Below are positions 14,643 through 16,231 of a DNA stretch of 64,000 nt, piece after piece (position 1 is the first letter of the stretch; each line of letters begins with the position of its first letter). The stretch comes from a plasmid. Below the pieces are notes generated by a model. It was not told the DNA's origin. It ran no database searches and saw only the letters and a list, made by a program, of their open reading frames with translations. Position numbers and translations under genes: made by a program. Location of the stretch: NCBI RefSeq assembly GCF_988243305.1, contig NZ_OZ547137.1. The stretch is one strand, 5' to 3'.

Positions 14643-14747
14643 TGATTTTACCCAGCAATAGTGGACATGCGGCTAAGTGAGTAGACTCTCAGTCAGAGGT
14701 GACTCACATGACAAAAACAGTATCAACCAGCCAAAAAACACGTAAAC
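14643..14747 (+). mobile_element. IS3-like left-end fragment (variant IRL and first ~17 codons of orfA)
   Basis: tgattttacccagcaatagtggacatgcggctaagtgagtagactctcagtcagaggtgactcacatgacaaaaacag, a few mismatches to canonical IS3; truncated by the next element. Confidence 0.7.
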
Positions 14748-14798
14748 TGAACCGTCCCGGAAATCCTGGAGACTAAACTTCCAGAGAAAGAGGTAAAC
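14748..14798 (+). mobile_element. IS629-like (IS3 family) left inverted repeat, interrupted by IS3
   Basis: tgaaccgtcccggaaatcctggagactaaacttccagagaaagaggtaaac; continues at 16057 after IS3 copy 2. Confidence 0.7.
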
Positions 14799-14854
14799 TG
14801 ATCTTACCCAGCAATAGTGGACACGCGGCTAAGTGAGTAAACTCTCAGTCAGAG

Positions 14855-15163
14855 GTGACTCACATGACAAAAACAGTATCAACCAGTAAAAAACCCCGTA
14901 AACAGCATTCGCCTGAATTTCGCAGTGAAGCCCTGAAGCTTGCTGAACGCATCGGTGTTACTGCCGCAGCCCGTGAACTCAGCCTGTATGAATCACAGCT
15001 CTACAACTGGCGCAGTAAACAGCAAAATCAGCAGACGTCTTCTGAACGTGAACTGGAGATGTCTACCGAGATTGCACGTCTCAAACGCCAGCTGGCAGAA
15101 CGGGATGAAGAGCTGGCTATCCTCCAAAAGGCCGCGACATACTTCGCGAAGCGCCTGAAATGA
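14855..15163 (+). CDS. insE: IS3 OrfA
   Basis: Identical protein to 7625..7933. Confidence 0.95.
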
Positions 15164-16026
15164 AGTATGTCTTTATTGAAAAACATCAGGCTGAGTTCAG
15201 CATCAAAGCAATGTGCCGCGTGCTCCGGGTGGCCCGCAGCGGCTGGTATACGTGGTGTCAGCGGCGGACAAGGATAAGCACGCGTCAGCAGTTCCGCCAA
15301 CACTGCGACAGCGTTGTCCTCGCGGCTTTTACCCGGTCAAAACAGCGTTACGGTGCCCCACGCCTGACGGATGAACTGCGTGCTCAGGGTTACCCCTTTA
15401 ACGTAAAAACCGTGGCGGCAAGCCTGCGCCGTCAGGGACTGAGGGCAAAGGCCTCCCGGAAGTTCAGCCCGGTCAGCTACCGCGCACACGGCCTGCCTGT
15501 GTCAGAAAATCTGTTGGAGCAGGATTTTTACGCCAGTGGCCCGAACCAGAAGTGGGCAGGAGACATCACGTACTTACGTACAGATGAAGGCTGGCTGTAT
15601 CTGGCAGTGGTCATTGACCTGTGGTCACGTGCCGTTATTGGCTGGTCAATGTCGCCACGCATGACGGCGCAACTGGCCTGCGATGCCCTGCAGATGGCGC
15701 TGTGGCGGCGTAAGAGGCCCCGGAACGTTATCGTTCACACGGACCGTGGAGGCCAGTACTGTTCAGCAGATTATCAGGCGCAACTGAAGCGGCATAATCT
15801 GCGTGGAAGTATGAGCGCAAAAGGTTGCTGCTACGATAATGCCTGCGTGGAAAGCTTCTTTCATTCGCTGAAAGTGGAATGTATCCATGGAGAACACTTT
15901 ATCAGCCGGGAAATAATGCGGGCAACGGTGTTTAATTATATCGAATGTGATTACAATCGGTGGCGGCGGCACAGTTGGTGTGGCGGCCTCAGTCCGGAAC
16001 AATTTGAAAACAAGAACCTCGCTTAG
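15160..16026 (+). CDS. insF: IS3 OrfB
   Basis: Identical protein to 7930..8796. Confidence 0.95.
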
Positions 16027-16056
16027 GCCTGTGTCCATATTACGTGGGTAGGATCA

Positions 16057-16231
16057 AACAGGATGACTAAAAATACTCGTTTTTCCCCCGAAGTCAGTCA
16101 TAGGGCGATTCGTATGGTTCTGGAAAGTCAGGGCGAATATGACTCACAATGGGCGGTAATTTGTTCCATTGCCCCAAAGATTGGCTGTACACCGGAGACT
16201 CTGCATGTCTGGGTACGCCAGCATGAGCGGG
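16057..16231 (+). pseudogene. IS629-like orfA 5-prime fragment (continuation after IS3 copy 2)
   Basis: [57 protein letters not shown], then diverges at ~16215. Confidence 0.75.

Follow-up and report, generated by a model that had tools for sequence, protein, structure and literature searches.

How many mobile elements were put together at this locus, and in which order did they arrive? The locus occupies positions 14643-16231 of a 64,000-nt stretch of plasmid DNA (contig NZ_OZ547137.1), and this whole stretch is referred to as the window. A preliminary description, made from the letters and their open reading frames, proposed a triple nesting: an IS3-like left end, an IS629-like left end, and a canonical IS3 that splits the latter. 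The host replicon of the window is an enteroaggregative E. coli pAA-type virulence plasmid. Positions 11000-14760 share 99.9-100% identity with the annotated aatP, aatA, aatB, and aatC (dispersin export) of many pAA plasmids; positions 16060-19500 correspond to IS remnants and to the pseudogene of an S6-family (SepA-like) peptidase that these plasmids also carry. The pAA plasmids differ among themselves mainly in IS content (PMC11950199). Over positions 1-28625, the window is colinear with one of them, pE1246_1, except for the IS3 copies at 7569 and 14799.

The gene nearest to the locus is aatP (13292-14422, minus strand), the first gene of the dispersin-export operon aatPABCD, which matches the pAA annotation at 100% and lies outside the IS stack. 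Its start codon at 14422 was transferred from the pE1246_1 annotation (record position 61905). Since aatP is read on the minus strand from this codon, the IS stack starts 220 bp upstream of the gene. The AT-rich spacer of 220 bp (14423-14642) extends from the start codon to the outer tip of the IS3-like relic. The region has just two promoter-like sites on the minus strand (14606-14577 and 14571-14544), and both fall within this spacer, between aatP and the stack.

The complete IS3 and its empty site

A complete IS3 of 1258 bp is located at 14799-16056 on the plus strand, beginning with TGATCTTACC and ending with GGTAGGATCA. Comparison with IS3A of E. coli K-12 showed one mismatch over the 1255 shared nucleotides, the annotated K-12 copy being without the first 3 nt; the identity to the IS3 on pCOL315-2 is 99.76%. 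The inverted repeats (14799-14838 and 16017-16056) have the form TG...CA and are imperfect, with 28 of 40 positions matching by hand count. The element contains orfA (14864-15163, 99 aa, HTH_Tnp_1) and orfB (15160-16026, 288 aa, rve). The transposase matches the IS3-family model NF033516 with 339 bits, and the rve, HTH_21, and HTH_Tnp_1 domains were all detected. A putative A-AAA-G slippery site at 15126-15130 is found just upstream of the 4-nt overlap of orfA and orfB (15160-15163), where a shift to the -1 frame would be expected.

The trinucleotide AAC precedes the element (14796-14798) and is repeated behind its 3' end (16057-16059). The preliminary description had placed IS3 after ggtaaac in the IS629-like sequence with AAC duplicated, and this was fully borne out. 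IS3 family elements transpose by a copy-out/paste-in mechanism via a circular intermediate, and the 3-bp duplication is consistent with this mechanism.

The empty site has been preserved in related plasmids. In pE1246_1 (NZ_CP025574.1), base-by-base alignment showed the window sequence minus IS3 and minus one AAC, exact across the junction, so that a single AAC is present. The FORC_069 plasmid has the same IS3-free arrangement at 100% identity, as judged from contiguous coordinates, and the uninterrupted IS629-like/intron sequence was found in 46 E. coli records. The IS3-filled site was found in none of 5,426 complete E. coli genomes and none of 72,556 plasmids (PLSDB). Because IS3-free relatives exist and the filled site occurs in no searched record, the IS3 insertion is the youngest event of the stack and is specific to this lineage, in agreement with the order of events that had been proposed.

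The window contains three IS3 copies, at 7569-8826, 14799-16056, and 46850-48107, which are mutually 100% identical and which the preliminary description overlooked as a set. Each has a different 3-bp duplication (TAT, AAC, and TCC, respectively). The three identical copies point to a recent small transposition burst. All three duplications are intact, so no recombination between the copies has followed the burst. The site at 7569 is also empty in pE1246_1. Identical repeats of this size within 64 kb, one of them at a site filled in no other record, might also suggest an assembly artefact, in which one of the three copies was misplaced here. Such an error is very improbable: the insert measures exactly 1258 bp, its AAC duplication is perfect, and its flanks agree with the empty site at every base. 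A misjoin would not yield a 3-bp duplication, and the other two copies have their own distinct ones.

Two consequences may be considered. None of the three IS3 insertions occurs in any complete E. coli genome or plasmid that was searched, and hence the IS3-filled site together with its two sister insertions could mark the lineage of this pAA plasmid in PCR or typing assays. The identical copies also flag ongoing activity, which could drive rearrangements near the aat, aggR, and fimbrial genes. A direct effect on the aat operon is not expected: the new IS3 lies upstream of aatP, 377 bp from its start codon and farther out than the candidate promoter sites, so its position makes a change in aat expression unlikely.

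The IS3-like and IS629-group remnants

Positions 14643-14747 (plus strand) are the left-end relic of an IS3-like element, here termed IS3v, and correspond to its positions 1-105. A gapless alignment of the relic with nucleotides 1-105 of the IS3 at 14799 gave 98 identical positions out of 105 (93.3%; mismatches at positions 5, 26, 42, 89, 90, 96, and 98), and the two were matched by blastn within the window at E = 2e-40. It retains the left inverted repeat with the terminal TGAT, the ATG start, and the first 14 codons of orfA. At this level of identity, IS3v would count as an isoform of IS3. IS3v is matched by 41 E. coli records at 99% identity or more and by another 32 at 95-99%; some 4,200 reach 90-95% only, and the sampled rows of these are annotated as IS3. 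A variant 22-mer of IS3v is absent from 100,044 species-representative genomes (GTDB), and the 26-mer of its inverted repeat was found solely in two relics of about 83% identity, from a Citrobacter sp. and an Enterobacteriaceae genome. A full-length IS3v was not found; only 73 E. coli records match at 95% or more, and some of their contexts were inspected.

A right-end relic of an IS3-like element (IS3 positions 1010-1258) is located at 21337-21572 on the minus strand, with 86.7% identity to IS3 and a small internal deletion. Although this relic might represent the other end of IS3v, its inverted orientation and greater divergence prevent a link between the two. Matches of at least 95% to it occur in only 77 E. 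coli records; in the one inspected, it lies under two adjacent features annotated as 'IS3 family transposase'. No intact relative was identified via those matches.

At 14748, IS3v meets the left end of an element of the IS629/IS1203 group, the inverted-repeat tip of which (TGAACCG) is intact. This junction and every coordinate given in the preliminary description were confirmed. The element is found on the plus strand in two parts: positions 1-51 at 14748-14798 and positions 52-223 at 16060-16231, which are continuous in the IS3-free plasmids. To the right of IS3, the second AAC (16057-16059) is followed by IS629-like sequence from 16060 onward, and the end proposed earlier, 16231, is indeed the last IS629-like base. 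By sequence match, 14748-14798 and 16060-16233 together equal positions 1-225 of IS629-group elements. The orfA of the stub starts at 16063 and is preserved for its first 56 codons (MTKNTRFSPEV...), and HTH_Tnp_1 was detected with 25 bits on an 82-aa ORF (16063-16311). The orfB (DDE), the right inverted repeat, and the target duplication of this element are all absent, and homology ends at 16231-16233. The remainder of the element being missing past this point, the piece is a remnant.

The 225 nt of the stub share 96.0% identity with unnamed IS3-family copies, 94.2% with IS1203-annotated copies, and 92.9% with copies annotated as IS629 or IS3411. The label "IS629-like" is hence correct at the level of the IS629/IS1203/IS3411 group (92.9-96.0%), but it should not be read as more specific. 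Against the copy on pCOL315-2, the first 51 nt are 92.2% identical and the following 178 nt 97.2%. On that plasmid (NZ_CP155525.1, locus 3001-5560), an IS3 is truly nested in the IS629-group left end. Four further IS3/IS629-like nestings looked colinear and proved to be separate neighbouring elements. The window contains two other IS629-group fragments. One is a left end at 25583-26001 (positions 1-421, 97% identity to the pCOL315-2 copy), with which an ALIL frameshift pseudoknot (RF01497) is found at 25916-26014; the other is a short fragment at 36958-37040.

The right boundary: intron and IS66-family remnants

The IS629-like sequence ends at a precise junction, 16231/16232, which was overlooked in the preliminary description. 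Here, position 223 of the element lies against the 3' terminus of a group II intron. Positions 16232-16322 (minus strand) are the last 91 nt of an E.c.I6-type intron, covering domains V-VI and the 3' terminus ...CTACTCGAT, and are antisense to the IS629-like orfA. The Rfam model RF00029 was matched over its full length (model positions 1-77 of 77) by minus-strand positions 16232-16303, scoring 47.2 bits where the gathering score is 40. Identity of the remnant is 95.6% to a chromosomal intron relic of E. coli D2 and 92.3% to the 3' end of E.c.I6 of CFT073, which has the same terminal base. Domains I-IV and the reverse transcriptase (RT) of the remnant are absent, and homology to the D2 and E.c.I6 copies ends at 16322. 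The coordinates of E.c.I6 and its assignment to class C were taken from Tables S2 and S3 of Leclercq and Cordaux 2012 (PMC3522654). Another intron described there, E.c.I4, is reported to home into IS629 and IS911. The remnant is not E.c.I4: blastn gave no match to E.c.I4-3a of strain 55989, and E.c.I6 was matched instead.

The other half of the intron insertion site was found in E. coli D2. The relic in the D2 chromosome (locus 3180-5500) is composed of three pieces, namely a fragment of IS110, an E.c.I6-type intron whose RT gene is split, and a fragment of an IS629-like element; 830 complete E. coli genomes contain the D2-type relic in highly conserved form. In D2, the intron 5' end (GTGCG) lies against position 224 of the IS629-like fragment. 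The half in the window (position 223 against the 3' end) and the half in D2 (5' end against position 224) join without loss or duplication. Retro-insertion of an intron leaves no duplication, and this exact fit is what would be expected for retro-insertion between positions 223 and 224. Two points weigh against this reading: the halves stem from two different genomes, and in D2 the sequence flanking the intron on its 3' side belongs to an IS110 fragment instead of an IS629-like element. The intron strand contains a 9-bp hairpin, the end of which is 9 nt upstream of the insertion site. Hairpin-guided targeting is established for class C introns, and the hairpin appears consistent with it. The literature searched contained no description of the antisense IS629 orfA hairpin as a recurrent landing site of E.c.I6-type introns.

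No further Rfam matches were found in 14400-17000 at a permissive threshold. Elsewhere in the window, a second and much longer group II intron is present at about 4700-7010 (minus strand), with about 67% identity to the E.c.I6-type intron. It has Rfam D1-D4 matches at 6711-6787 and 6827-6997, a domain V-like match near 5248-5290, and a 450-aa RT/maturase-like ORF at 5313-6665, annotated in pE1246_1 as ltrA with an internal stop. A copy of about 34 nt of the E.c.I6-type 3' terminus (88-94% identity) was also found at 24839-24872. It adjoins an STnc490 Rfam match at 24893-25017 (140 bits); near the position corresponding to 24839-25017, an IS200/IS605 transposase fragment is annotated in pE1246_1.

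The intron remnant is followed by two IS66-family fragments. Positions 16323-16430 (plus strand) are the right end of an IS66-family element, consisting of the 3' end of tnpC (...INDWPSNRVHELLPWN...) and the terminal inverted repeat ending GCGCTTAC, with 73.7% identity to the annotated tnpC 3' end and terminus in pE1246_1. Because 16322/16323 connects the intron remnant with the interior of tnpC, it is a deletion or rearrangement junction and not an insertion junction. This first element has its right terminus at 16430, where it meets an internal piece of the tnpA gene of another IS66-family element (16431-16690, plus strand; 78-aa ORF 16454-16690). The fragment matches the IS66 TnpA profiles NF038385 (E = 1e-12) and NF047595 (E = 1e-10), shares 79% identity with the tnpA of ISEc23, and is annotated as 'transposase' (WP_000239755.1). 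A 58-nt direct repeat (16317-16374 and 16668-16725, 86% identity) presents a tnpC 3'-end segment of the IS66 family twice, and the second copy adjoins the S6-family peptidase pseudogene.

None of the matches to the elements of the stack is due to chance. The junctions, the empty site, and the identities of the pieces were all observed directly. The three elements that had been described as a triple nesting are present in the order proposed. The stack has more layers than three, as the E.c.I6-type intron remnant and the two IS66-family fragments follow.

Probable stepwise assembly, target choice, and known relatives

Taken together, the locus is very probably a mobile-element graveyard on a pAA plasmid, which was built up in steps, in DNA that tolerates insertions, at a distance of 220 bp upstream from the aat operon. 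Each inner element has an intact terminus against the interior of the outer element. As a first step, the IS3-like element IS3v would have inserted upstream of aatP. In a second step, the IS629/IS1203-group element may have transposed into IS3v after position 105. In a third, the E.c.I6-type (class C) intron would have retro-inserted into the bottom strand of the IS629-like element between positions 223 and 224. Deletions and IS66-family activity may then have removed the remaining parts of the intron, the IS629-like element, and IS3v. Finally, an active canonical IS3 entered the IS629-like stub at positions 51/52 with duplication of AAC, in the lineage of the window only and presumably as part of the small burst that gave the three identical copies. 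The relative timing of the second, third, and fourth steps, as well as the simple form of the insertion at the second, is what we infer from these pieces.

The second step deserves particular care. The two outer elements survive as left stubs only, a point likewise overlooked in the preliminary description, and so the nesting of the IS629-like element in IS3v rests on one junction. The right halves of both are absent, hence no duplication is present to confirm the step. The IS629-like tip is intact, and this shows that the junction was made by the IS629-like transposase. The event need not have been a simple insertion: the element might have caused an adjacent deletion or inversion, or might have inserted into an IS3v that was already truncated. 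A single surviving IS629-like terminus without a scorable duplication would fit such events, as would the surroundings, which are demonstrably rearranged where the intron remnant meets the internal point of tnpC (16322/16323). A simple insertion with later loss of the right-hand parts would give the same sequence outcome, and the more complex origins are considered the less likely ones.

The positions of the insertions raise the question of target choice. Three transposition events took place at positions 42, 51, and 105 of IS3-family left ends, two of them at GTAAAC^AG. This might reflect targeted insertion, beyond mere tolerance of insertions by the region, with a preference of IS3-family elements for the first ~100 bp of other IS3-family elements, or for the GTAAAC^AG motif itself. 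GTAAAC precedes both junctions of the stack, in IS3v (...CGTAAAC|TGAACC) and in the IS629-like element (...GGTAAAC|TGATCT), and AG follows GTAAAC in the canonical IS3 (GTAAACAGCAT) and in the IS629-like element (GTAAACAGGAT). An independent IS3 on pCOL315-2 was inserted 9 bp upstream in the same IS629-like left end, with a GAA duplication. The flanks of eight IS3 copies do not bear out such a preference, however: they are TAT, AAC, TCC, GGG, ACC, ACT, and GAA, with one copy lacking a duplication, and have no GTAAAC consensus. IS3 was found inside an IS629-like left end in only two cases, and the observation was made post hoc. A targeting preference therefore seems quite unlikely, and since the eight IS3 sites show none, GTAAAC at both junctions is treated as a coincidence. 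A broader form of the idea would be that IS3-family elements and, separately, class C introns preferentially colonise the 5' ~225 bp of IS3-family elements; the E.c.I6-type intron would then use the hairpin on the antisense strand of the IS629 orfA as a recurrent landing site. This is a similarly doubtful speculation. If both parts were true, 'IS-in-IS' targeting would follow a self-limiting rule.

The stack has no cellular or host function. It is ordinary in kind and already known as such, nested and truncated IS elements being routine on virulence plasmids. The analysis may be of practical use for annotation, where 'hypothetical protein' and 'IS3 family transposase, partial' could be replaced by a defined series of remnants, including the terminus of an E.c.I6-type intron.

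By comparison with known systems, the complete element is a member of the IS3 group of the IS3 family, like IS3A-E of K-12, with the same size, inverted repeats, orfA/orfB arrangement, A-AAA-G motif, DDE (rve) transposase, and 3-bp duplication. It shows no substantive difference from reference IS3, and the insertion site alone is new. The members of the IS629/IS1203/IS3411 group share with the stub the left inverted repeat TGAACCG..., the leader, and the OrfA N-terminus, with 92.9-96% identity over positions 1-225. However, the stub in the window is only 223 nt long, split by IS3, cut by the intron, and nearest to unnamed variants. The intron remnant is alike to E.c.I6 (class C) in the grp island of CFT073 over the 3'-terminal 91 nt (92.3%, same terminus), whereas it is without the RT gene and occupies a different site, antisense in the IS629-like orfA. 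E.c.I4 in strain 55989 is inserted in the sense orientation downstream of the frameshift pseudoknot in the transposase gene; the remnant in the window is antisense and farther upstream. As a whole, the locus resembles the IS-rich mosaic regions of pAA and other virulence plasmids, where stacked and truncated IS elements are likewise found between virulence loci, and there is no difference in kind.
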